Made by a program: the position numbers and the translations under genes. A stretch of 64,000 bases of DNA from Eubacteriales bacterium (GTDB lineage: Bacteria > Bacillota > Clostridia > Oscillospirales > CAG-272), in contig JAZQWO010000018.1 in the NCBI GenBank assembly GCA_045632405.1, positions 4,832 to 68,831 of the forward strand, written 5' to 3'. Under the pieces are notes generated by a model, which saw only the letters and a list, made by a program, of their open reading frames with translations, was not told the DNA's origin and made no database searches. This document shows, piece by piece, positions 871-32,747 of the stretch (position 1 is its first letter; each line of letters begins with the position of its first letter).

Positions 871-2112
871 ATGGGTATTATTAAGGCGTTTTTTGATGCA
901 GTAGGCGGCAATCTTGCTGACCAGTGGTTAGAGGTTATTGAGGCTGATAATATGAGTGACACCACGGTTTTCACAAGCGGAGTGGCTGTTCGCACGGGCA
1001 AGAGAGGCAGCAATAAAAAGGGTAGCGATGACTATATAAGCGACGGTAGCATTATTCACGTTTATGACAATCAATTTATGATTTTGGTTGACGGCGGCGA
1101 GGTTGTTGACTTTACCGCAGAGCCAGGCTACTACAAGGTTGACTTAAAGGCAACACCGTCACTTTTCAGCGGTCGCTTCGGTGACTCTATTAAGGAAATG
1201 TTTTCAAGAATTAAGTTCGGCGGCGTTCCCTCTGCTAAGCAAAAGGCATACTTCATTAATTTGCAGGAAATCAAGGGTATCAAGTTCGGCACAAGAACTC
1301 CTGTTAACTATTTTGATAATTTCTATAACGCAGAGCTGTTTTTAAGAGCCTTCGGTACTTACTCAATTAAGATAACAAACCCACTTAAATTCTACCGTCA
1401 GGTTATTAGCAGAAATGCAAGCCGCGTTGATATTAACGATATTAATGAGCAATATTTGTCCGAGTTTTTAGAGGCACTTTCTGCCGCTATTAACAGAATG
1501 TCCATTGACGGTATCAGAATTTCACACGTGGCATCCAAGTCAACAGAGCTTTCAAAATATATGGCAGACGAGCTTGATGACAACTGGAATGAGCTTCGCG
1601 GCTTTGAGGTTTTGTCCGTTGGTGTGGCAAGCGTCAGCTACGACGAGGAGTCCAAGGAGCTTATCAATATGCGCAACAAGGGCGCTATGCTTGGTGACCC
1701 TTCTGTGCGTGAGGGATACGTTCAGGGTGCGGTTGCAAGAGGAATTGAAAGCGCAGGCTCTAACTCAAACGGAAGCACAGCCGCCTTTATGGGTATGGGC
1801 TTAGGTATGAATGCGGCAGGCTCCTTTGTGCAGACAACAAGCCAGACAAATACCGCCCAAATGGAACGCGAAAAGAACGAAAACGGATGGAAATGCTCCT
1901 GCGGTCAAACCAATACAGGCAATTTCTGTCAAAGCTGTGGCGCAAAGAAGCCAAGCCAAAACGGCTGGACCTGTGCTTGCGGCTCAACCAATACAGGCAA
2001 CTTCTGCCCGAATTGTGGCGCTAAAAAACCTGAGGAAACGGTGAAGTTCTGCCCTGACTGTGGCACAAAGAACACAGGCAAATTCTGTCAGAATTGCGGT
2101 AAAAAGCTATAA
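871..2112 (+). CDS. SPFH/Band-7 domain protein (COG4260, YdjI-like) with three C-terminal zinc-ribbon repeats
   Basis: The N-terminus MGIIKAFFDAVGG..DQWLEVIE and overall layout resemble B. subtilis YdjI-type SPFH proteins. The C-terminus carries 3x CxCG..NTGNFCxxCGAKKP. RBS aaaggag precedes the start. Confidence 0.7.
   Translation: MGIIKAFFDAVGGNLADQWLEVIEADNMSDTTVFTSGVAVRTGKRGSNKKGSDDYISDGSIIHVYDNQFMILVDGGEVVDFTAEPGYYKVDLKATPSLFSGRFGDSIKEMFSRIKFGGVPSAKQKAYFINLQEIKGIKFGTRTPVNYFDNFYNAELFLRAFGTYSIKITNPLKFYRQVISRNASRVDINDINEQYLSEFLEALSAAINRMSIDGIRISHVASKSTELSKYMADELDDNWNELRGFEVLSVGVASVSYDEESKELINMRNKGAMLGDPSVREGYVQGAVARGIESAGSNSNGSTAAFMGMGLGMNAAGSFVQTTSQTNTAQMEREKNENGWKCSCGQTNTGNFCQSCGAKKPSQNGWTCACGSTNTGNFCPNCGAKKPEETVKFCPDCGTKNTGKFCQNCGKKL
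1882..2109 (+). repeat. Three tandem 78-nt (26-codon) zinc-ribbon coding repeats
   Basis: Units start at 1882, 1960 and 2038: NGWKCSCGQTNTGNFCQSCGAKKPSQ / NGWTCACGSTNTGNFCPNCGAKKPEE / TVKFCPDCGTKNTGKFCQNCGKKL. Confidence 0.85.
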
Positions 2113-2184
2113 TTAGTTACATTCTTTAGAAAGTCCAAATGGGCACTCACTATGGCTACATAATGGGTGCTTACCACATAAATT

Positions 2185-3243
2185 ATGACTACTCAAACAT
2201 TAACATATCAATGCCCCTGTTGCGGTGCGGGACTCAAATTTGATGCAGATACCCAGCTTTTCAAATGTGAGTTTTGCCTAAGCGAGCACACAGAGGCGGA
2301 TCTTGAAAAAACCGATGCCCATAAAAAGGCAGAGGAGGCAGCGGCGCAAAACGAGGAGTTTTGCAGCCATATGAACGAATATCACTGTAACCAGTGCGGC
2401 GCCCAAATCGCGGCTGACGAAAACACGGTTGCAGATATGTGTCCCTATTGCCATAGCCCTGTGGTGCTTTGCGGCAGACTCAGCGGACAGAAAATGCCGA
2501 CAAAGATAGTGCCCTTTAAGTACTCTAAGGAAGAGGCGATAAACCACTTTATTGATTTTGCCAAGAAAAGATGGTTTGTGCCAAAGGACTTTAAGGACAG
2601 GGCACGCATTGAAAAAATCACAGGCATTTATTACCCATTTTGGGTGACGGATGCAGACACGGACTCACAAATAAACGCGGTCTGCACAACGGTGAGAACC
2701 TGGACATCGGGGGACTACCGCTATAAAAAGACCTCGTATTATAATGTTATGCGCCGTGGCGATATTCATTTTGAGGATATTTCACAGTCCGCATACTCCG
2801 AGGCTGACAAAAATATGCTTGAGGGTATTTTGCCATTTCCGGCAAGTGCGCAAATAGACTTCAATATGTCCTATCTCAGCGGCTTTTTGGCAAAAAAGCG
2901 CGATATCGAAAGAGAAGCATTAGAGGAAAGCTTTAAGCAAAAAATACTAGGTTACGGAAGCGCAGTTTTAAAAAGAACGGTAAACGGATATTCAAGCATA
3001 GATATTAAAAACAGCCACGCAAGGATTAAATCTTGCCATTGGGACTATTCCTTGATGCCCATTTGGCTTCTTACATATTGCGACAAAAAGGGCAAGCGTT
3101 ATACCTATGCTATGAACGGACATACGGGCAAAATTTACGGTGAGCTTCCTATATCACCAAAAAGACTTACAATCGGTGCGCTTATAACAGGTGCGCTCAG
3201 TGCCCTTGCTACCGCCTTGTTAGGAGGCCTTATGCTATTATGA
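2185..3243 (+). CDS. Double zinc-ribbon protein with C-terminal TM anchor (YdjG-like architecture)
   Basis: CPCCG..x..CEFC and CNQCG..x..CPYCH ribbons, then a hydrophobic C-terminus LTIGALITGALSALATALLGGLMLL. Sits immediately after the SPFH gene. Confidence 0.5.
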   Translation: MTTQTLTYQCPCCGAGLKFDADTQLFKCEFCLSEHTEADLEKTDAHKKAEEAAAQNEEFCSHMNEYHCNQCGAQIAADENTVADMCPYCHSPVVLCGRLSGQKMPTKIVPFKYSKEEAINHFIDFAKKRWFVPKDFKDRARIEKITGIYYPFWVTDADTDSQINAVCTTVRTWTSGDYRYKKTSYYNVMRRGDIHFEDISQSAYSEADKNMLEGILPFPASAQIDFNMSYLSGFLAKKRDIEREALEESFKQKILGYGSAVLKRTVNGYSSIDIKNSHARIKSCHWDYSLMPIWLLTYCDKKGKRYTYAMNGHTGKIYGELPISPKRLTIGALITGALSALATALLGGLMLL

Positions 3244-3551
3244 AAAAGATATATATTGTATTCATAGTTTTGCTCGGTGCCCTTTCCTTGGCGGTTTTTG
3301 CAATCGGCTTTACTCAAATGAGTGAAAACCCAAGGGAAGAAGCGTTTTGGTATGCCTTTGTCATTGTAGGCTTGACGGTTTTGAGCCTTGGCATTTTTCT
3401 GCTTGCCGTTGTTGGCTCGTATAAAACTAAGCTCCGCGGTGAAATCTATCCCATAGATAAATATACAACCCTTGAGCTGACAGGGCAAAGCGATATTTAT
3501 TCTCATAGCCATACCACAAGCTACCGCTATAGAAGCAATAAGAAAAAATAA
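3240..3551 (+). CDS. Small two-TM membrane protein
   Basis: ATGA overlap with the upstream gene (translational coupling); two hydrophobic segments. Confidence 0.45.
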   Translation: MKKIYIVFIVLLGALSLAVFAIGFTQMSENPREEAFWYAFVIVGLTVLSLGIFLLAVVGSYKTKLRGEIYPIDKYTTLELTGQSDIYSHSHTTSYRYRSNKKK

Positions 3552-3608
3552 AGGAAATGCACCTTCGTAAAGCGTGACATTCTTAGCGGAGAAATTGTAT
3601 AACACATG

Positions 3609-3656
3609 GTAGGGGCGAACTGTGTTCGCCCGCGGGCGTTCGCATAACGCCCCTAC
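3609..3656. repeat. GC-rich nested palindrome, copy 1
   Basis: gtaggggcg...cgcccctac encloses two inner hairpins (ggcgaac..gttcgcc and ggcgtt..aacgcc). Its reverse complement nearly equals 31957-32004. Confidence 0.85.
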
Positions 3657-3694
3657 GGAGAGGGAAATTTGCTCCGCAGTAAACAAATAAAAAA

Positions 3695-3721
3695 CCCCGA
3701 GAGATTTCAAATCTGTAGGGG
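3695..3721 (+). terminator. Hairpin plus T-tract (part of repeat family E); probable terminator of the 871-3551 operon
   Basis: ccccgagagat ttcaa atctgtagggg followed by ttttatt. Confidence 0.5.
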
Positions 3722-3857
3722 TTTTATTACGTCAGGTTATAGTAGTATATTTGGTCTGCGAAAGTAGTTTTTGAAGCTTCAAAAAACGTTCCTGTCTTTT
3801 TCCGTGAAAAGGATAGTTTTGAAAAGGAAAGACGAAAGATCTGCAGAGAGAGCGGGA

Positions 3858-4056
3858 ATGATATTCCGACTTCGTCGGAGTGATATTATTGCTATCGCAA
3901 TAGTGATATTGAAGCCTGGCGGATTCAGTGATATTTTATTCGCCCATAAAAACTCGCGTAGCGAATACCACTCGGCGTAAGCCGAATATCACAGCGAAGC
4001 AATAGAACTCGCCGTAGGTGAATAAAACTGCCCAACTTCCTTATGAGAAGTTGGGC
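3858..4056 (+). repeat. Multi-hairpin repeat, family B, copy 1 (about 200 nt)
   Basis: A series of short hairpins separated by GTGATATT (left half) and AATATCAC-like (right half) motifs, ending in hairpin cccaacttc-cttatga-gaagttggg. An inverted copy lies at 54730-54924. Confidence 0.85.
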
Positions 4057-4177
4057 AAGGGGAGGGCTTTCACTGTTTAATAAAGGCTCTACAAATAGTA
4101 GAATTCCACAACTAAACCGACAGTAGGTGGATTTTATGATGATTTATCGGTATAATATGTGTGAAAGGAGTGATTTT

Positions 4178-4789
4178 GTGGATCAGGTTAAAATCGGAAA
4201 ATTTATTGCCGAGAGAAGAAAGGCACAGGGCTTGACCCAGCTTCAGCTTTCAGAAAAATTACACGTTACCGACAAAGCCGTATCAAAGTGGGAAAGGGGC
4301 AAATCAATGCCCGACTCATCCATTATGCCTGCGCTTTGCCGCGTTCTTGATATTACAGTAAATGACCTGCTCAGCGGAGAGGCAGTGTCAGTGGACAACT
4401 ATAACAAAGAGCTTGAAAACAACTTGATGGAAATGATAAGACAAAAGGAGCAAATGGACAGGTGCCTTTTGAAAATTGAGTGGGTTTTGGGAATTCTTTC
4501 CGCTATCATTTTGATAGTTCCTGCATTAATAGGCTCTTTAGTGCCAATGGAGGAATGGCAAAGAGTTGCCATTATATTTGCAGGACTTATTCCTGCCGTA
4601 GTGGGCTTTGCATTTGCTATGAAAATTGAGCAGGTGGCAGGCTATTATGAATGTAAGCATTGCGGACACAGATACGTCCCCACATATAAGGACATGAATT
4701 TGGCGATGCACATAGGCAGAAAAAGATATTTGAAATGCCCGAAATGCGGCAAAAAATCCTGGCAGAAAAAGGTTATCAGCAAGGAATAG
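4178..4789 (+). CDS. XRE-family HTH regulator with two TM segments and a C-terminal zinc ribbon
   Basis: Start moved to the GTG at 4178 (RBS aggag plus 8 nt). IGKFIAERRKAQGLTQLQLSEKLHVTDKAVSKWERG is an HTH_3 motif; TM stretch follows; then CKHCGH..x..CPKCG. Confidence 0.7.
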   Translation: MDQVKIGKFIAERRKAQGLTQLQLSEKLHVTDKAVSKWERGKSMPDSSIMPALCRVLDITVNDLLSGEAVSVDNYNKELENNLMEMIRQKEQMDRCLLKIEWVLGILSAIILIVPALIGSLVPMEEWQRVAIIFAGLIPAVVGFAFAMKIEQVAGYYECKHCGHRYVPTYKDMNLAMHIGRKRYLKCPKCGKKSWQKKVISKE

Positions 4790-4795
4790 GAAAAA

Positions 4796-4819
4796 GGGAA
4801 CGGTTGCGTTCCCTTTTTT
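4796..4819 (+). terminator. Intrinsic terminator
   Basis: gggaacg gttg cgttccc then TTTTTT. Confidence 0.7.
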
Positions 4820-4891
4820 GCGCATTTTTTAACAAAACCGCATATATGTGTGCTATAATTTACATAAGAAAAATATTTAAGGAGATTTGAT

Positions 4892-7063
4892 GTGGAAAAA
4901 TCACCTGAACAGATATTAAAGGAGCTGACTCTTGACCAAAAGATAGCTCAGCTTGTGGCTCACGGCTCTCCCTCTGATTTTGTAAAGGATAAACAGTTTG
5001 ACAGGGAATTTGCTTGTGAAAAATACCCAAACGGCATTTTCGGTCTTATGGTGCCAATAGATTTAGAGCCTGCCGAAATTGGTGCGTGGGCTTGCCAAAT
5101 GCTTGAGCATTTTGAGTCCGTTTCCCCCGTTCCCCCTGTTTTGATGTGTGAATCCCTACACGGTATATTGGGCAAGGGAACAACGGTTTTCCCTCAATCC
5201 ATCGGTATGGGCGCAACCTTTGACTCTGATTTGATGGAGCGCGTGGGCAAGGCAATCGGCGACGAGGCACGCGCCTTGGGAATTCGCTTGTCCTTAGCTC
5301 CCGACTTGGATCTTGGCAGAGAGCCGAGATGGGGCAGAATAGAGGAAACCTATGGCGAGGACTCCCACCTTGTCGGTATGATGGGCGAGGCCTACATAAA
5401 GGGACTTTTGGGAAATGATAAAAAATATGCCGCAACAATCAAGCACTTTGCCGCACACGGCTCGCCAAAGGCAGGTGTGAATTTGTCCTCTGTCACCGTG
5501 ACAGAAGGGGAGCTATGGGACAGATACCTGCCGCCATTTAAAAAAGCCTTGGATGCAGGGGCATACTGTGTTATGCCTGCGTACTCTATGCTAAATGGCG
5601 CACCCTGTCACGCAAGCCACCATTTGATGAACGAAATTCTAAGAGAAAAATTAGGCTTTGACGGTGTTGTGGTGTCAGATTTTGGTGCGATTGAAATGCT
5701 CACATATTTCCAATGCGTTGCAGAAAACCAGGAGCAGGCGGCGCAAATGTGCATTTCCTGTGGCATAGATGTTGAAGCGCCCGACGCTTGGGCGTATGGC
5801 AATAGCCTTAAAAAGCTAGTAGAAATCGGAAAAATTGACATTTCCGAAATCGATAAAATAGTGCTTCGTATTCTCAAATTAAAGGTAAGACTTGGACTTT
5901 TTGACCTGGAAAAGCCGAGCATCAAGAAAATTAACCGAGTTGTTCACTGCCAAAAGCATCTTGATCTTGCTAAAGAAGCAGCGCAAAAATCAATGGTTTT
6001 GCTCAAAAACAGCGGTGCACTTCCTCTTAAAAAGGACGCAAAAATTGCGGTTATAGGACCTAACGCATACAGTGCTCAGCTTGGGGACTATGCCTTGCCA
6101 AAGCCAAGCGCAAAAACACCTCTCGAAGCAATTGCCGAATATGCCGAAAAGCACGGTGGCGTGGTAAAGAGCGCCAAGGGCTGTGATGTTTACGGCACAG
6201 ATAAATCAGGTTTTTTTGAGGCTCTGGAAATTGCCAAGGATGCAGACACGGTGGTTTGCATAATAGGTGGCAAGAGCATGAAGGGCTACGGCGTTGGCTG
6301 GGGCAGTGAGGAAGAGGCTATTCTTACCTGTGGCGAGGGTTGCGATATGCACGACTTGACCCCGGGTGGAGTTCAACTCGATTTGGTACGGGAAATGATA
6401 AAAACAGGCAAGGACGTGGTTGTTGTTATGGTTGACGGCAGACCCGAAACACTGCACGATGTGGCAGATAGTTGCGGTGCGCTTGTGGCTGCCTGGTATC
6501 CTGGTGAGGTAGGCTCAGAAGCACTTGTCGAGCTGCTTTTTGGAGAATGCAATTTTTCAGCCAAGCTCCCTGTTACATTTCCTAAGCATACAGGTCAGCT
6601 GCCTCTTTGTTATGACGAGGTATATTCAAATTACGGCTTTTATCACTCACCGGGAACTCCCGAAAAGCCAGGACGTGATTATGTGTTTTGTGACACTCTG
6701 CCGCGTTTCCCCTTTGGCTACGGTCTTGGCTATTCTGCGCTTGTATATAACACATTGAACGTCAAATATGAAAACGATAAATTGACAGCTTGCGTAGAAA
6801 TTGAAAACAAGGGTGAGCGCTTGGCAGAGGAAAGTGTGCTTATATATATTCGTGACGAGGTGGCGTCTGTGCCACAGCCTGTGAAAAAGCTGGTGGCGGT
6901 TAAGAAAATCACTGTGGACGCAAAAGAAACAAAAAAAGCCTGCTTATCAATTCCCAAGGAAGAGCTTATGCTGACAGGACTTGATTTGCAAAAAAGGCTG
7001 GAAAGCGGCTGGTTTACAGTAATGACAGGCGAGCTTAGTGCGCGCATTTATATTGAAGATTAA
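4892..7063 (+). CDS. Glycoside hydrolase family 3 (BglX-type beta-glucosidase/xylosidase)
   Basis: GH3 motifs: KHFAAHG, GFDGVVVSDFGA, and a C-terminal domain with GEVGSEALVELLFG..KLPVTFP. GTG start with RBS aaggag. Confidence 0.8.
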   Translation: MEKSPEQILKELTLDQKIAQLVAHGSPSDFVKDKQFDREFACEKYPNGIFGLMVPIDLEPAEIGAWACQMLEHFESVSPVPPVLMCESLHGILGKGTTVFPQSIGMGATFDSDLMERVGKAIGDEARALGIRLSLAPDLDLGREPRWGRIEETYGEDSHLVGMMGEAYIKGLLGNDKKYAATIKHFAAHGSPKAGVNLSSVTVTEGELWDRYLPPFKKALDAGAYCVMPAYSMLNGAPCHASHHLMNEILREKLGFDGVVVSDFGAIEMLTYFQCVAENQEQAAQMCISCGIDVEAPDAWAYGNSLKKLVEIGKIDISEIDKIVLRILKLKVRLGLFDLEKPSIKKINRVVHCQKHLDLAKEAAQKSMVLLKNSGALPLKKDAKIAVIGPNAYSAQLGDYALPKPSAKTPLEAIAEYAEKHGGVVKSAKGCDVYGTDKSGFFEALEIAKDADTVVCIIGGKSMKGYGVGWGSEEEAILTCGEGCDMHDLTPGGVQLDLVREMIKTGKDVVVVMVDGRPETLHDVADSCGALVAAWYPGEVGSEALVELLFGECNFSAKLPVTFPKHTGQLPLCYDEVYSNYGFYHSPGTPEKPGRDYVFCDTLPRFPFGYGLGYSALVYNTLNVKYENDKLTACVEIENKGERLAEESVLIYIRDEVASVPQPVKKLVAVKKITVDAKETKKACLSIPKEELMLTGLDLQKRLESGWFTVMTGELSARIYIED

Positions 7064-8046: not shown

Positions 8047-8051
8047 ATTGC

Positions 8052-8076
8052 AAAAGGGCAGAATTCCTGCCCTTTT
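8052..8076 (+). terminator. Intrinsic terminator
   Basis: aaaagggcag aattc ctgccctttt. Confidence 0.7.
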
Positions 8077-8116
8077 GTTGCGTTAAAGAATTTTGTGCCA
8101 AAAATTCCAAAAGATA

Positions 8117-8145
8117 TTGACAAATTCAAAATAAGATGTTAAACT
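8117..8145 (+). promoter_or_regulatory. Sigma-A type promoter of the RNase III/Smr module
   Basis: TTGACA, 17-nt spacer, TGtTAAACT. About 210 nt of AT-rich leader lie before the RBS aaaggagg. Confidence 0.55.
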
Positions 8146-8358
8146 AAACAATACAGAGTCTTGATAGTGTAATGAACTCAAAATGTTAAGAAGAAATTAT
8201 CGAATACAAAATGTTGTGGTCGATGCATTTTAAGTTGTTTTTTGGCAAAGACATTGTTTAATCTCCAAGCCTCCTTGAAGAGATTCTGTGCATAGCGGAT
8301 ATGTCATTTAAGCAGATATTAAATCCGTTTTAACAGAATAATTAAAGGAGGACACACC

Positions 8359-10602
8359 ATGTCAGTTGAACGATATGAGGGTGGCCTTAGTTGGTCACCC
8401 CTTTTTTCAGCTTCAAAAAATGAAATTAGCGAGTTTTTAAGAGATTTATCAACAAATATTGAAAATCGCTTGGGATTACAAGACGTTGCCGTTAGACTTT
8501 CATACCACATTAAAATAGATGTTATGGATGAGGATGTTTTAGAGGCGATAAAGCGCGTAATATTCAAATATACGTTGGAATTTACTTCCTTTGCAAAGGA
8601 TGTACTAAGCGAGGACGAGCACGAGAAAGCATTTGACACCTATAAGAGAGAGCAGTTTAACAGTAATGCCTTGAATACGCTATTGAACTATTACTTGTGC
8701 GCTTGTGTGCGTTGGTTGCGCGAGAGTGAGCAATGGCTAAGCTTGTCGTTCCTTTTTTGGGGCGACATTAAAGAACAAACCGAAAAAATTAGAAATAAAA
8801 AGGTTGAAAAACAATATAGCCCGCTTAAAAAAGCTATTGAGAAAATTGCATCAGGAGTAAAGGCGCAGTGTTACTTAGATTCCAATAAGTATGCCTTATC
8901 TAAGTATCAGGTCTTAGGGGAAAGATTAAATAGCTACCTTGTTGAAAAGTATGGATATGATTTTAATAAGGTATCTCTTTACAGTGAGAATAGCTTTATG
9001 GGCTTTGACGGAAAAGCTAATGAGCTTTTAGAGCTTGCACTTCTTGATGACAAGGAGTTTTGGAGGACCAAGGACTTCAACGCTATCGTTTTTATAAACT
9101 CTATATATAAGAATAATAGTGAAAAGCACGCTCGAAAGGTGCTGGATTATATTTTATCCAAGATTACAAGCAACAGGCTTTTGGAAACTTTGATGGATAA
9201 CGGGTTATCGATCGGGTTATATGATAAGCAATCATATATTGATACCTATTCTAAAATGCTTACCCAAAATGGATATAGCACAGAGCTGATGTATCCGCTG
9301 GTTTCAGTTGAGAATGAAGAAGAAAAGTGTAGCCGTGGCAAAGAAATCTTTGAGAGCTTTTTGTATGGATATGTGTACCCAAATAACAAAGAGATTATAG
9401 AAGAAAGATTGCGTGGCAAATTAAACACTCCGGTTAAAAAGCTCTATACAATATTTGGAACGCTCAATTTCATCGTGACCGGTTTGAATATCACAGAAGA
9501 GTACGCAAGGGCGCTTGAGATTGTTTGTCCACAGTATTTTGCCGAAGAATCGCTTTGGAAAAGAGTATACTTAAAGACTTATGAAATGAGCTTGCGCATA
9601 GAGCAGGAACGGCTTTATTCGTTTATGTTTGAGGATTTTTACAATTTGTTTGCTGTTCTTGAATGGGAAACAGGAATAGAAACGGCTATTCAGCTTGACC
9701 TTGGCACAAGAAATGCGGCGTTAAACAAATTAAAGGAGCTTTTGAAGAGCTTCGACATAGAGATTTCAGATAAAATGGAATTGGATTATATAGCATCTCT
9801 TTTAGACAGAAAAAGCGCTAAGATGACCGAGGCGGAGCGTTTTCCTGTACTTGAACAGCTTGGAGATGCAATATATGGCTTTGCTGTTGCAGAAATGATT
9901 TTTTATAATCCGGATTATGATGATTATGCAGATGATGCTATGAATCCAAAGCAAAGATTTGAAAATTATATTTCTGCAAAGGGACAAATTAAAATTGTTG
10001 AAAAATACAATATAGACCAAATGTACATTTCGGCATCGTCTGTTTTGGGAAAAAATGATGAACATCTTGTAAACGGTGTGAATGATTATAACCGATGTGG
10101 TGAAACAAGCAAGGAAATTAAAAAGTATCTCGCAGACACCCTTGAGATGATTTTAGGAGCGGTAGCATTGGACAAGGGCTATGACGTGGCAATTGACCTG
10201 GCAAAGAAAATGATACGCGAAACATTTAAGGGAGACTTCCCAAGGGAGTTACACTATTCTTGTAAAGCTGTAGTGGAAAGCAAGGACGTTGACAGGGATT
10301 ATTGGATGAGAATACGACCTGGCATACATTGGTCATTAAATGAACTGCGAGATGTGTATAATCAGCTTATGATTGGCGCCTTTTATAAGTTGATGGCTTG
10401 CATTGTCTTTAAAACTGAGGGCATCAATGAAAGGCGAAAGATTTCTCACGTAAGCTACGATCTATTGGAGTGCTTTGACGTAGATGGCTATTTATACTCC
10501 ATTTCCCCTGCGTATTATTGCTATTTAACAGAGGGGCTTTATAAGGCTGTAGAGGCATTTGGTGAGCGCGCACTGAAAAAATACAAGGAAAAGAACAAAT
10601 AA
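8359..10602 (+). CDS. Large protein of unknown family carrying an RNase III catalytic domain (residues about 495-625)
   Basis: RNase III signature blocks FPVLEQLGDAIYGFAVAE (ExLGD) and KYLADTLEMILGAVALDKGY (DxxE..GA). The N-terminal ~490 aa and C-terminal ~120 aa are unrecognisable, and I see no dsRBD. Strong RBS. Confidence 0.7.
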   Translation: MSVERYEGGLSWSPLFSASKNEISEFLRDLSTNIENRLGLQDVAVRLSYHIKIDVMDEDVLEAIKRVIFKYTLEFTSFAKDVLSEDEHEKAFDTYKREQFNSNALNTLLNYYLCACVRWLRESEQWLSLSFLFWGDIKEQTEKIRNKKVEKQYSPLKKAIEKIASGVKAQCYLDSNKYALSKYQVLGERLNSYLVEKYGYDFNKVSLYSENSFMGFDGKANELLELALLDDKEFWRTKDFNAIVFINSIYKNNSEKHARKVLDYILSKITSNRLLETLMDNGLSIGLYDKQSYIDTYSKMLTQNGYSTELMYPLVSVENEEEKCSRGKEIFESFLYGYVYPNNKEIIEERLRGKLNTPVKKLYTIFGTLNFIVTGLNITEEYARALEIVCPQYFAEESLWKRVYLKTYEMSLRIEQERLYSFMFEDFYNLFAVLEWETGIETAIQLDLGTRNAALNKLKELLKSFDIEISDKMELDYIASLLDRKSAKMTEAERFPVLEQLGDAIYGFAVAEMIFYNPDYDDYADDAMNPKQRFENYISAKGQIKIVEKYNIDQMYISASSVLGKNDEHLVNGVNDYNRCGETSKEIKKYLADTLEMILGAVALDKGYDVAIDLAKKMIRETFKGDFPRELHYSCKAVVESKDVDRDYWMRIRPGIHWSLNELRDVYNQLMIGAFYKLMACIVFKTEGINERRKISHVSYDLLECFDVDGYLYSISPAYYCYLTEGLYKAVEAFGERALKKYKEKNK

Positions 10603-10649
10603 AACTGCTTAAATGACATACCTGCCAAAAAACTGTTTTTGGAGGAAAA

Positions 10650-10988
10650 ATGAATAAATGCGTTGAAATCAACATAAAAGAAACAATGCCATCTGTTGAT
10701 GTGGCACTGGATGACTTGAAGGGCGCTATTAAAATTAAAAAATCACTTGGCTATAGATGCTTGGTTGTTATTCACGGTTACGGTAGCACGGGAAAAGGTG
10801 GCGCAATTTGCAAAAAAGCGCGCGATTGGTTGAAATCGCAGAAAAAAAGCAAAAAGCTAAAGAGCGTTATTCCCGGCGAGGAGTTCGATGTTTTCAACGA
10901 AAAAAACATTGCACTATTATCACGTTACAGCGAATTGAAAAATTATATTTGCAAATGCAATCACGGCGTAACTATTGTTGAGTTATAA
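10650..10988 (+). CDS. Stand-alone Smr (MutS2 C-terminal-like) domain protein
   Basis: LVVIHGYGSTGKGG..ARDWLKSQ..LKSV...HGVTIVEL parallels the MutS2 Smr pattern IIHGKGTG..L..H..VKSF..GGfGVTiVEL. RBS ggagg. Confidence 0.7.
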   Translation: MNKCVEINIKETMPSVDVALDDLKGAIKIKKSLGYRCLVVIHGYGSTGKGGAICKKARDWLKSQKKSKKLKSVIPGEEFDVFNEKNIALLSRYSELKNYICKCNHGVTIVEL

Positions 10989-10994
10989 AGGGAA

Positions 10995-11020
10995 AGGAAC
11001 AGCTTGTGCTGTTCCTTTTT
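10995..11020 (+). terminator. Intrinsic terminator closing the two-gene module
   Basis: 9-bp stem aggaacagc/gctgttcct, loop ttgt, then TTTT. Confidence 0.75.
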
Positions 11021-11035
11021 CTCTTTAATTTTTTG

Positions 11036-11064
11036 TTTACAAACCTTTTTATGTATGGTATAAT
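11036..11064 (+). promoter_or_regulatory. Sigma-A type promoter
   Basis: TTTACA, 17-nt spacer, TGgTATAAT. Confidence 0.5.
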
Positions 11065-11124
11065 TTAACTGTAAGTATGCAGATATAAAAAGCATACTTA
11101 ATACTAGAAAGGTAAATTAATTAT

Positions 11125-11871
11125 ATGGAACTGAAAATTATTAGCTTTAACATCAGATGCTGTGACGATAAGGACGGCAATTCAATAGCAGAGCGTGCGC
11201 CTCGCTTGGCAGAAATCACAGGTAAATATGATGCGGACATCATAGGCTTTCAGGAATATACAGTACCTTGGGAAAAGGAAATTGAAAAGTTTTACCCAGA
11301 ATACGAAATGTTCAGCAAATACCGTTCTGTAAACGAGCTTGAGGCGGCACCTATCCTTTGGAAAAAGGGAATGTTTGAGTGCTTGAAAACAGGATATTTC
11401 TGGCTTTCCGACACTCCCGAGGTGGAATCCCGCGGCTGGGACGAGCTATACAACTGCTGGCGTATGTGCGAGTACGTTATTTTGAAGCACATTGAAAGCG
11501 GCAAGGTGTTTACATATATGAACACACACTACGGCTTTGGAGATAAGGGTCAGACCGCAAGCTCTGCACTTCTTTATGAGTACAGCCAAAAAATTTCTCA
11601 AAACCCAACATTTATTACAGGAGATTTCAATATGCGTCCTGATAGCTGTGGCTATGCGGAAATGGTGAAGCACTTTACAGATGTAAACTCAGTAACCGCC
11701 AATGACAGAAGAACAACCTATCACGGCTACGGTGTGGTAGATAATCAGCATATTGACTATTGCTTCATAAATGACAAAATCAAGCCAATCAGCCTAAAGA
11801 TAATTGACGAAACAGTGGATGGCAAGTACCCAACAGACCACTACGGACTTTTTGTTAAGCTTGATATATAA
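11125..11871 (+). CDS. Endonuclease/exonuclease/phosphatase (EEP) family protein
   Basis: IISFNIR..., IIGFQE, GDFN, and a terminal PTDHYGLFVKL are typical EEP blocks. Confidence 0.7.
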   Translation: MELKIISFNIRCCDDKDGNSIAERAPRLAEITGKYDADIIGFQEYTVPWEKEIEKFYPEYEMFSKYRSVNELEAAPILWKKGMFECLKTGYFWLSDTPEVESRGWDELYNCWRMCEYVILKHIESGKVFTYMNTHYGFGDKGQTASSALLYEYSQKISQNPTFITGDFNMRPDSCGYAEMVKHFTDVNSVTANDRRTTYHGYGVVDNQHIDYCFINDKIKPISLKIIDETVDGKYPTDHYGLFVKLDI

Positions 11872-32371: not shown

Positions 32372-32379
32372 CATATAGT

Positions 32380-32747
32380 TAAACTAAGTCTATAAGCCGT
32401 GTTCTGTCATTTAAGACGGTCATCTATCTTTGCTCCGTGTTGCCACGAAGCTCCGCAAATGCGTGCCACCCGGGGAAACGCCAAATGGCTTGTCGGGCAA
32501 ACAAGATTTTCCCCATGCGGTGTTGCTTCGGATAGGGTTTACACCCACCCCATGTTACCATGGGCTGTCGTGAGCTCTTACCTCGCGTTTTCAACCTTAC
32601 ACGGCGAAGCCGTGCGGTAATTTTCTGTTGCACTTTCCCTAAGGTCACCCTCGGCTGACGTTATCAGTTATCCTGCCCTGTGAAGCACGGACTTTCCTCA
32701 CCGTAATACCTTTCGGCAACATACGGCGCGACCGCCCAACTTAGTTC
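32380..32747 (-). ncRNA. rnpB: RNase P RNA
   Basis: The minus strand reads ..GAGGAAAGTCCGTGC.. near the 5' end and ..ACAGAACACGGCTTATAG.. near the 3' end. P1 pairing is GAACTAAGT/ACTTAGTT. A perfect TTGACA-17-TATAAT promoter ends 7 nt upstream. Confidence 0.9.

Follow-up and report, generated by a model that had tools for sequence, protein, structure and literature searches.

A two-gene unit on the forward strand of a 64,000-nucleotide stretch of DNA from a Eubacteriales bacterium (hereafter, the window) encodes a large protein with an RNase III domain (open reading frame 1, ORF1) and a small Smr-fold protein (ORF2). Relatives of this unit make up an operon family whose full form consists of a structured leader RNA, the gene for the ORF1 homologue, a gene for prokaryotic viperin (pVip), and a gene for the small Smr-fold protein; we refer to the ORF1 protein family as R3. 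On balance, we lean toward reading the window unit as a reduced, viperin-less member of this undescribed operon family, and the family as a module against viruses or mobile elements that would act on RNA and be held off by its own mRNA.

Association of R3 with viperin

We used a word-indexed search to collect 46 clusters of ORF1 homologues and scanned the related loci with hidden Markov models (HMMs) built from the proteins encoded in the operons; gene content was tallied over 30 informative distinct loci. A pVip gene lies directly 3' of the ORF1 homologue in 25 of these loci, and the arrangements are as follows:

R3, pVip, Smr: 15 of 30 loci
R3, pVip with a C-terminal tail of ~95 aa, no Smr: 7 of 30 loci
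R3, Smr (the window included): 4 of 30 loci
R3, pVip only: 3 of 30 loci
R3 alone: 1 of 30 loci

The radical-SAM proteins encoded between R3 and Smr in the relatives match the NCBIfam viperin equivalog model NF038283 with 256-276 bits (cutoff, 180 bits; E = 1e-76 to 1e-82), and the same proteins match the pVip models of PADLOC with E = 1e-72 to 1e-80. One protein for which there is no DNA context (P0075, 1045 aa) has the R3 architecture fused to a C-terminal viperin with the radical-SAM motif CNFHCYHC. An earlier note on this DNA, made from the sequence alone, had proposed ORF1 and ORF2 as a candidate defence module and had asked whether their adjacency recurs. An ORF1 homologue and an Smr gene do occur together in 19 of the 30 loci, and, in a check from the opposite direction, two proteins of the Smr subfamily picked solely for their long contigs both lay in R3-pVip-Smr operons. 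The direct link to pVip makes the proposed defence role plausible; the two-gene pair, however, is not the basic unit, since the commonest form is R3-pVip-Smr.

The seven loci of the Smr-less clade (L004, positions 10410-11534; L012, L013, L015, L023, L025, and L029) encode a viperin with a conserved C-terminal tail of ~95 aa. This tail has a weak, sub-threshold match to DUF2325; it was also considered as an Smr domain, and that assignment was rejected. Based on a profile search of 1.84 billion representative proteins, 74 proteins fall below E = 1e-30, all of them full-length relatives of R3 or fragments (~60 are full length), and the architecture of the R3 family is constant across relatives. 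Locus L007 also carries a second, divergent R3 paralogue (positions 3409-5583, 724 aa) in tandem, 5' of a canonical leader-R3-pVip-Smr operon; neither a Pfam RNase III match nor a leader-model match of its own was found for this paralogue.

Viperin is among the few immune effectors common to bacteria and animals, and descriptions of pVip usually treat it as a system of one gene. Little has been described of how bacterial viperins are regulated or which partners they have. Genes for pVip have been reported adjacent to those for the RNases HicA and RelE, in a survey that asks whether RNases assist viperins (PMC10865869). Our literature searches turned up no report connecting viperin to RNase III-domain or Smr proteins, nor one connecting Smr proteins to anti-phage functions.

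Using an HMM built from the operon viperins, we found no viperin among the ORFs of at least 50 aa across the 64 kb of the window. The lack of a gene that is present in 25 of 30 related loci fits a decaying remnant, that is, a three-gene viperin operon that has lost its viperin, is now useless, and whose ORF1 and ORF2 are heading to pseudogenes. A path of decay can be seen within the family: locus L037 (positions 1232-3439, protein P0009) has R3 alone, without leader, viperin, or Smr and with the intragenic hairpin kept, and P0009 carries the catalytic substitutions E499 to F and E596 to K. Proteins P0008 and P0021 are also substituted at catalytic positions, and together with L037 they look like a decay series. 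For the window itself, we consider a remnant unlikely. Neither ORF is truncated, no catalytic residue is missing, and the Shine-Dalgarno (SD) sequences, the terminator, the leader, the hairpin within ORF1, and the long-range arms (complementary at 19 of 21 positions) are intact. In a neighbor-joining tree built from R3 proteins, loci without viperin are interspersed with three-gene loci, and viperin has therefore been lost several times with R3 and Smr staying intact; four separate lineages, with ~50% protein divergence between them, keep intact R3, Smr, and leader without pVip. The rate of nonsynonymous substitution (dN) is far under that of synonymous substitution (dS) wherever it is measurable; between the window and a 99%-identical relative, dN/dS is ~0.16, a value that comes from 10 differences only. 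The recurrence in four lineages and the dN/dS ratio favor a working two-gene form rather than a wreck, with R3 and Smr of the window apparently still under selection.

The RNase III-domain protein

The two coding sequences of the unit are as follows:

8359-10602, forward strand: ORF1, 747 aa, with an all-helical N-terminal region of ~490 aa, an RNase III domain at residues ~496-630 (nucleotides ~9844-10248), and a helical C-terminal tail
10650-10988, forward strand: ORF2, 112 aa, with an Smr fold, conserved IHGYGSTGKGG and NHGVT motifs, and N-I-K-E instead of DxH (LDLHG)

Pfam model PF00636 (Ribonuclease_3) matches residues 498-607 of ORF1 over the gathering score (E = 1.6e-8), and profile-profile comparison with hhalign aligns the ORF1 family to classical RNase III catalytic domains (probability, 99; E = 3.6e-18). 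Both RNase III signature blocks are in register in the hhalign alignment, LEQLGD with LEFLGD and LADTLEMILGAV with LADAVEAVLGAI; the RNase III motifs noticed at the outset are thus genuine, and the check for misalignment came out clean. The catalytic carboxylates E499, D503, D593, and E596 are all present in the window protein and are kept in 42 of 46 aligned homologues. The AlphaFold2 model of ORF1 is wholly helical (predicted local distance difference test [pLDDT], 87.7; predicted template modeling [TM] score, 0.75), and its best Foldseek matches are RNase III nuclease domains (3n3w, with a target TM score of 0.75; also 1jfz and 2a11).

A second RNase III domain, degenerate forms included, was not found in ORF1 with hhalign, and long Foldseek alignments to Drosha and Dicer were rejected as evidence for one (TM score, <0.25). 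No double-stranded RNA-binding domain (dsRBD) was found in ORF1 either, in agreement with the initial reading. From this domain content, R3 would be expected to cut double-stranded RNA as a homodimer. Foldseek searches of the PDB and BFVD matched only the RNase III part of the model, and the N-terminal 490 aa has no sequence or fold relative; the description of this region as sensor-like was a conjecture. Against TIGR02191, the equivalog model for housekeeping RNase III, ORF1 scores 25.9 bits (cutoff, 166 bits), with the catalytic part alone aligning. Scans of ORF1 and ORF2 with PADLOC, NCBIfam, and PHROG models identified nothing beyond the RNase III and Smr domains; with PADLOC-DB v2, there was no match below E = 0.1 for the window proteins, and the 46 family members gave chance-level matches only. 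The statement that no named system is built in this way still holds: the family is covered neither by the PADLOC, NCBIfam, and PHROG models nor by any paper that we found.

The Smr-fold protein

Pfam model PF01713 (Smr) matches ORF2 with E = 1.1e-6 and 29.2 bits (cutoff, 25.7 bits). The AlphaFold2 model of ORF2 (pLDDT, 91.4) matches the Smr domains of MutS2 (4och, E = 5e-4; 2zqe, TM score of 0.80), with TM scores ranging from 0.72 to 0.80, and it also matches Escherichia coli YdaL. Within the ORF2 subfamily, the IHGYGSTGKGG loop is invariant, and the DLHG motif is replaced by a conserved E-x-N-I-K-E in every member (12, 36, and 43 sequences aligned). Pfam, the structural model, and the conserved N-I-K-E all bear out the proposal of an Smr domain with a replaced DLHG motif. 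The further claim that ORF2 is a nuclease is unsafe, as the whole subfamily is without the DxH motif needed for cleavage in characterized Smr proteins; in studies of SmrB and Cue2, mutating this motif (LDLHG) reportedly abolishes cleavage. We regard the Smr-fold protein as probably a binding or accessory subunit and not a DxH-type nuclease, because the DxH motif is absent and because one clade is without an Smr gene and has the DUF2325-like viperin tail instead.

The ORF2 loop HGYGSTGKGGAI (window positions 10770-10810, residues ~41-53) has a weak likeness (E ~0.1) to HGGGxSGQAGAIR of ribosomal protein uS9 and to a PPK2 motif. A sequence search of the PDB with the Smr profile gave weak matches only, and the uS9 likeness was treated as probably a chance similarity of glycine-rich segments.

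A small partner gene 3' of a nuclease gene, tight multi-layer control of expression, and the known position of pVip beside toxin-antitoxin-type RNases (PMC10865869) are also what an addiction module would present. In such a module, R3 would be a toxic RNase that persists selfishly, and either the Smr-fold protein or the leader RNA would restrain it, in the manner of a type II or type III-like system. We think this quite improbable: the Smr partner is dispensable in 11 of the 30 loci, in seven of which an unrelated viperin tail is found instead; the leader is not a repeat array, unlike type III antitoxins; and the toxicity of R3 is a prediction only.

A conserved leader RNA with riboswitch-like features

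The ~210 nucleotides between promoter and ORF1, listed in the earlier note simply as a leader, do more than separate the two. They are part of a conserved RNA control system in three pieces, namely the leader (structured over ~150 nucleotides), a hairpin within ORF1, and a long-range duplex. The elements of the system are as follows:

8191-8361, forward strand: conserved structured 5' leader comprising helices P1 and P2 and a long SD-sequestering hairpin (covariance model R1, 112 bits, E = 1.5e-20)
8199-8224, forward strand: helix P1, AUCGAAUACAA-AAUG-UUGUGGUCGAU, with 6 of 10 pairs changed on both sides across loci
8244-8271, forward strand: helix P2, GGC AAA GACAUU ... AAUCUC CAA GCC, from RNAalifold, with near-invariant internal sequence
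8270-8276, forward strand: anti-SD sequence CCUCCUU, predicted by minimum-energy folding to pair with 8345-8351 in almost every locus
8295-8315, forward strand: 5' arm of the long-range duplex, GCGGAUAUGUCAUUUAAGCAG, inside the leader hairpin, with 19 of 21 positions complementary to 10605-10625
8345-8351, forward strand: SD sequence of ORF1, AAGGAGG, 7 nucleotides 5' of the ATG, read from the sequence and paired to the anti-SD in the predicted fold
8379-8407, forward strand: terminator-like hairpin GGGUGGCC / GGUCACCC with a 6-nucleotide loop followed by a U6 run, from the terminator scan; it begins 20 nucleotides after the AUG, within ORF1
10605-10625, forward strand: 3' arm of the long-range duplex, CUGCUUAAAUGACAUACCUGC, which begins 3 nucleotides past the ORF1 stop codon

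The region upstream of R3 folds into a common layout in all loci that were folded, and an alignment of 24 leaders contains the invariant blocks AUAC, GG..A..GACAU, AAUCU, CCU, and CUG. In the long hairpin, AUUCUG also pairs with CAGAAU. On a plain MAFFT alignment, 89% of cells in the leader are paired, compared with 38-49% in slid controls. Compensatory (two-sided) change is seen at 13 pairs, compared with 4-7 in slid controls; these counts are drawn from related sequences, and the signal is partly clade-level. The covariation score was reached by 0 of 500 shuffles, and at P2 pair 61:91 the alignment has CG in 13 sequences, UA in 7, and UG in 4, with zero mismatches. The window leader folded as a single sequence has a z score of -3.2.

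When the covariance model was run against 459 kb, it gave one strong match per locus, always just 5' of R3 and on the same strand, with no match in L037; it also found leaders outside the training set (L024 and L016). Rfam has no match at 8191-8361 at E of 1 or below, and the scan of the whole window yielded nothing over a gathering threshold except RNase P RNA. An AUG in the P1 loop was examined by eye as the start of a leader peptide; the frame is open in the window, but it reads AUG-UGG-UAG in clade 2, and the candidate was therefore rejected. Features typical of riboswitches are present in the leader, with a covarying aptamer-like structure and an expression platform formed by the SD helix and the terminator-like hairpin. 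We propose the leader as a candidate new cis-regulatory, riboswitch-like motif; its trigger might be a small molecule or an RNA, or else a protein, for which the unmatched N-terminal part of R3 is one possibility.

A hairpin within ORF1 and a duplex around it

The intragenic hairpin was found in 28 of 28 loci examined, with 94% of cells paired (23-61% in slid controls) and with one pair that appears as AU, GC, UA, and CG with zero mismatches. The peptide encoded at this position varies (GGLSWSP, DGLFWPS, DALFWAS, and AALNWVA) and the pairing is retained, which argues for selection on the RNA and not on the protein alone.

The arms of the long-range duplex are 2.3 kb apart and bracket the R3 cistron; across the family, the covarying duplex measures 14-30 bp. 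In the window, this duplex outscores 200 of 200 spacer shuffles, and the 5' arm has no better complement in the 5.2 kb downstream. A homologous 3' element lies ~0-19 nucleotides from the stop codon in most related loci, and the duplex is formed there by other sequences (15 of 15 positions in L001, 18 of 18 in L017, 14 of 14 in both L041 and L008, and 17 of 17 in L042). The duplex beats at least 199 of 200 spacer shuffles in 12 of 21 loci, and when the R3 gene and 3 kb downstream were searched, the best complement of the inner leader fell at the stop codon in 17 of 24 loci. Pairing scores between leader and spacer average 12.8 for cognate pairs, compared with 7.6 for non-cognate pairs from other clades, and the extended long-range duplexes comprise 30-46 pairs.

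RNase III enzymes cut double-stranded stalks around rRNAs and in their own rnc leader, and by analogy the bracketing duplex is likely an RNase III-type processing site. Inverted repeats of 14-21 bp that enclose the whole R3 coding sequence could also mark the DNA ends of an inverton whose flipping would make R3 phase-variable, and gut bacteria are rich in such segments. We find this far-fetched, because R3 is co-oriented with the leader and downstream genes in all ~30 assembled loci, no conserved recombinase lies nearby, and the repeats differ between clades and covary, leaving no constant sequence for a recombinase to recognize. The 5' arm also lies inside a covarying RNA hairpin beside the SD sequence, and the enclosed gene encodes a nuclease domain of the type that acts on double-stranded RNA.

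Layout and composition of the window unit

The remaining features of the unit are as follows:

8117-8145, forward strand: sigma-70-like promoter, TTGACA - 17 nucleotides - TGtTAAACT, matching 10 of 12 positions in a consensus scan plus an extended -10 TG (consensus match only)
10641-10645, forward strand: SD sequence of ORF2, GGAGG, read from the sequence
10989-11022, forward strand: intrinsic terminator at the end of the unit, with a 15-bp stem containing 6 G-C pairs followed by a T-run

The layout is as originally described, with ORF1 (8359-10602, forward strand, 747 aa), a gap of 47 nucleotides, and ORF2 (10650-10988, forward strand, 112 aa) set between two groups of glycan-utilization genes, one with GH3 and SGNH and the other with EEP, GH43, and M20. 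Scanning likewise recovered the promoter and terminator that had been claimed, although such consensus matches are no rarer in the window than in shuffled sequence; a similar ATTGACAAATT box lies 5' of the leader in locus L008. A hairpin followed by a T-run (GGGCAGAATTCCTGCCC TTTTGTT; 8050-8078) was read by eye directly 3' of the SGNH esterase gene and is absent from the list of the terminator scan; it probably shields the unit from upstream transcription.

The G+C content is 0.377 in ORF1 and 0.378 in ORF2, compared with 0.441 ± 0.022 in the 39 other ORFs of at least 200 aa, which places both ~2.9 standard deviations under the other window ORFs. At 37.2%, the unit has the lowest G+C content of any 2.9-kb stretch in the window. 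The hand counts of G+C in the earlier note (41, 28, and 48) were reproduced exactly, and its view of a self-contained, compositionally deviant unit stands. No direct repeats that might mark an insertion site were found around 8100 and 11030. The sole Rfam match above threshold in the window is a bacterial RNase P RNA of class A (32377-32747, reverse strand; 250 bits), and we take the window to be chromosomal because it encodes this RNA.

Distribution and genomic neighborhoods

By record names, the hosts of R3 are Clostridia, Christensenella, Bacilli, Anaeroplasmataceae, Bacteroidales, and Gastranaerophilales metagenome-assembled genomes, and the G+C content of the host flanks ranges from 25% to 57%. 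The label "Corallococcus" on L012 was not trusted, given that a contig of 34-40% G+C is implausible for a myxobacterium and was probably mis-binned; Myxococcota are not counted among the hosts. A scan of viral contigs found no relatives of R3. The neighboring genes differ in every genome examined, and the family is rare and patchy across hosts, which supports the initial interpretation.

The earlier note had asked whether such loci map to defence islands, and the neighborhoods are mixed. Defence or mobile-element genes lie near R3 at several loci: L042 has genes for type I restriction-modification, an antitoxin, and an integrase; L004 has genes for an integrase, TnpV, and Schlafen-like and DEAD helicases; L001 has those for a reverse transcriptase and a Schlafen-like helicase; and L007 has one for a WYL regulator. 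Elsewhere, housekeeping genes adjoin the family, and in the window the neighbors are glycan genes.

Housekeeping neighbors at several loci raise the alternative that R3 has no part in defence and is a specialized housekeeping or regulatory RNase III paralogue that processes cellular RNAs with an Smr-fold helper, its RNA elements serving autoregulation as in E. coli rnc and viperin serving nucleotide metabolism. The bracketing duplex does resemble rRNA processing stalks and known RNase III autoregulation, and neither R3 nor Smr matches any defence model. A role of this kind nevertheless seems to us improbable for a family so sparse and patchy (~60 full-length representatives in 1.84 billion proteins), whose genomic position varies by genome and whose composition is deviant in the window. 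Its partner gene, moreover, passes the equivalog model for antiviral viperin, and restriction-modification, toxin-antitoxin, integrase, and Schlafen-like helicase genes are neighbors at several loci.

Proposed mechanism and weighing of the defence reading

The window retains the promoter, leader, hairpin, both arms of the duplex, the terminator, and two ORFs in which every key residue is kept, and these parts suggest how the module might work. In the resting state, the leader hairpin would pair the anti-SD (8270-8276) with the SD (8345-8351). With no ribosome loading, the hairpin and U-run at 8379-8407 would form, and transcription would stop ~50 nucleotides into ORF1. The SD would be released when a trigger acts on P1/P2, the conserved part of the leader; a ribosome starting at the AUG would then melt the terminator stem 20 nucleotides downstream within a few codons, and the operon would be transcribed and translated. 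Once the end of ORF1 had been made, 10605-10625 could pair with 8295-8315 of the leader, and the resulting double-stranded stalk would enclose the R3 cistron in the fashion of rRNA stalks. This stalk might be cut by an RNase III-type enzyme, either R3 itself or a host enzyme. Cutting would have one of two outcomes, a less stable message (negative feedback) or expression locked on through loss of the anti-SD, and it would uncouple R3 from the downstream gene or genes. In full systems, viperin would add chain-terminating 3'-deoxy-3',4'-didehydro (ddh) nucleotides. Layered control of this kind fits a harmful effector.

Several points weigh against a defence module, a function that we infer from the company R3 keeps. 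The association with pVip is no demonstration that R3 and Smr defend by themselves, and the window has no viperin. The window unit lies amid glycan-utilization genes and not defence genes, and many related loci lie beside housekeeping genes (pheST, recA, gyrB, and rluD-like). The Smr partner is without a DxH motif in all members, and the N-terminal 490 aa of R3 resembles nothing in the searches described above. As for the RNA, the covariation is partly a clade-level signal, and the window duplex has 2 mismatches in its 21 bp, with only 9-12 bp of perfect pairing in some loci. The dN/dS estimate draws on few substitutions.

A more ambitious claim is possible, though we hold it as doubtful: that this is a new antiviral module built on a Dicer-like R3, usually accompanied by viperin and Smr and gated by a riboswitch-like leader that couples SD release to read-through of the in-ORF terminator, in which closure of the mRNA on itself over 2.3 kb creates its own processing site. 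If so, three eukaryotic antiviral and RNA-surveillance pathways would find an echo in one bacterial operon that pairs viperin with an RNase III-family enzyme and an Smr protein. If R3 cleaves the bracketing duplex, an RNase III-type enzyme would be encoded within its own substrate, and if the defence function is real, RNase III-domain and Smr-fold proteins would be added to the components of immune modules.

The pairing of viperin with an RNase partner has already been published; the window locus is notable for its lack of viperin and for an RNA control architecture that appears to be new. Within the family, viperin gains two conserved partners and is in one protein fused to R3, and the naturally occurring viperin-less form separates the function of the partners from that of viperin. 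The control region would make a compact three-layer RNA gate of SD sequestration, a terminator-like hairpin within the ORF, and a kilobase-range mRNA duplex.

Comparison with known systems

R3 shares with rnc, Mini-III, Dicer, and Drosha the canonical RNase III catalytic domain with four acidic residues, and its fold matches the nuclease domains of the Campylobacter jejuni and Aquifex aeolicus enzymes. Like Mini-III, it is without a dsRBD, and like Dicer and Drosha, it has a large extra helical region. Unlike all of these enzymes, however, R3 has 490 aa of unmatched N-terminal sequence, and it further differs from known RNase III in a disordered insert of ~30 residues inside the domain and in its rare and patchy spread. 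Having one domain per chain, R3 is predicted to need a homodimer for cleavage. ORF2 has the fold and the HGxG-type loop of the Smr proteins (MutS2 C-terminal domain, E. coli SmrB and YdaL, and yeast Cue2), but the DxH motif of those proteins is gone, an extra C-terminal helical segment is present, and ORF2 stands alone at 112 aa.

The leader has in common with riboswitches and translation-coupled attenuators its covarying helices, near-invariant unpaired nucleotides, SD sequestration, and a downstream terminator-like hairpin. The R3 system departs from the known examples in that it belongs to no Rfam family, has its terminator-like hairpin within coding sequence, and includes a third, long-range element past the stop codon. 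In the E. coli rnc leader, rRNA stalks, and lambda sib, double-stranded RNA near or around a cistron serves as a control point for a nuclease, and the R3 duplex likewise brackets a nuclease gene. The R3 duplex differs in that its arms lie 2.3 kb apart on an mRNA, around a protein-coding gene, with the 5' arm inside the SD-sequestering hairpin; its cleavage is a prediction only.

The window differs from the pVip defence loci that have been described in having no viperin, and the R3 and Smr-fold partners are unrelated to HicA and RelE. Viperin together with an RNase partner is nonetheless a theme that the pVip-HicA and pVip-RelE pairs (PMC10865869) have in common with the R3 family.

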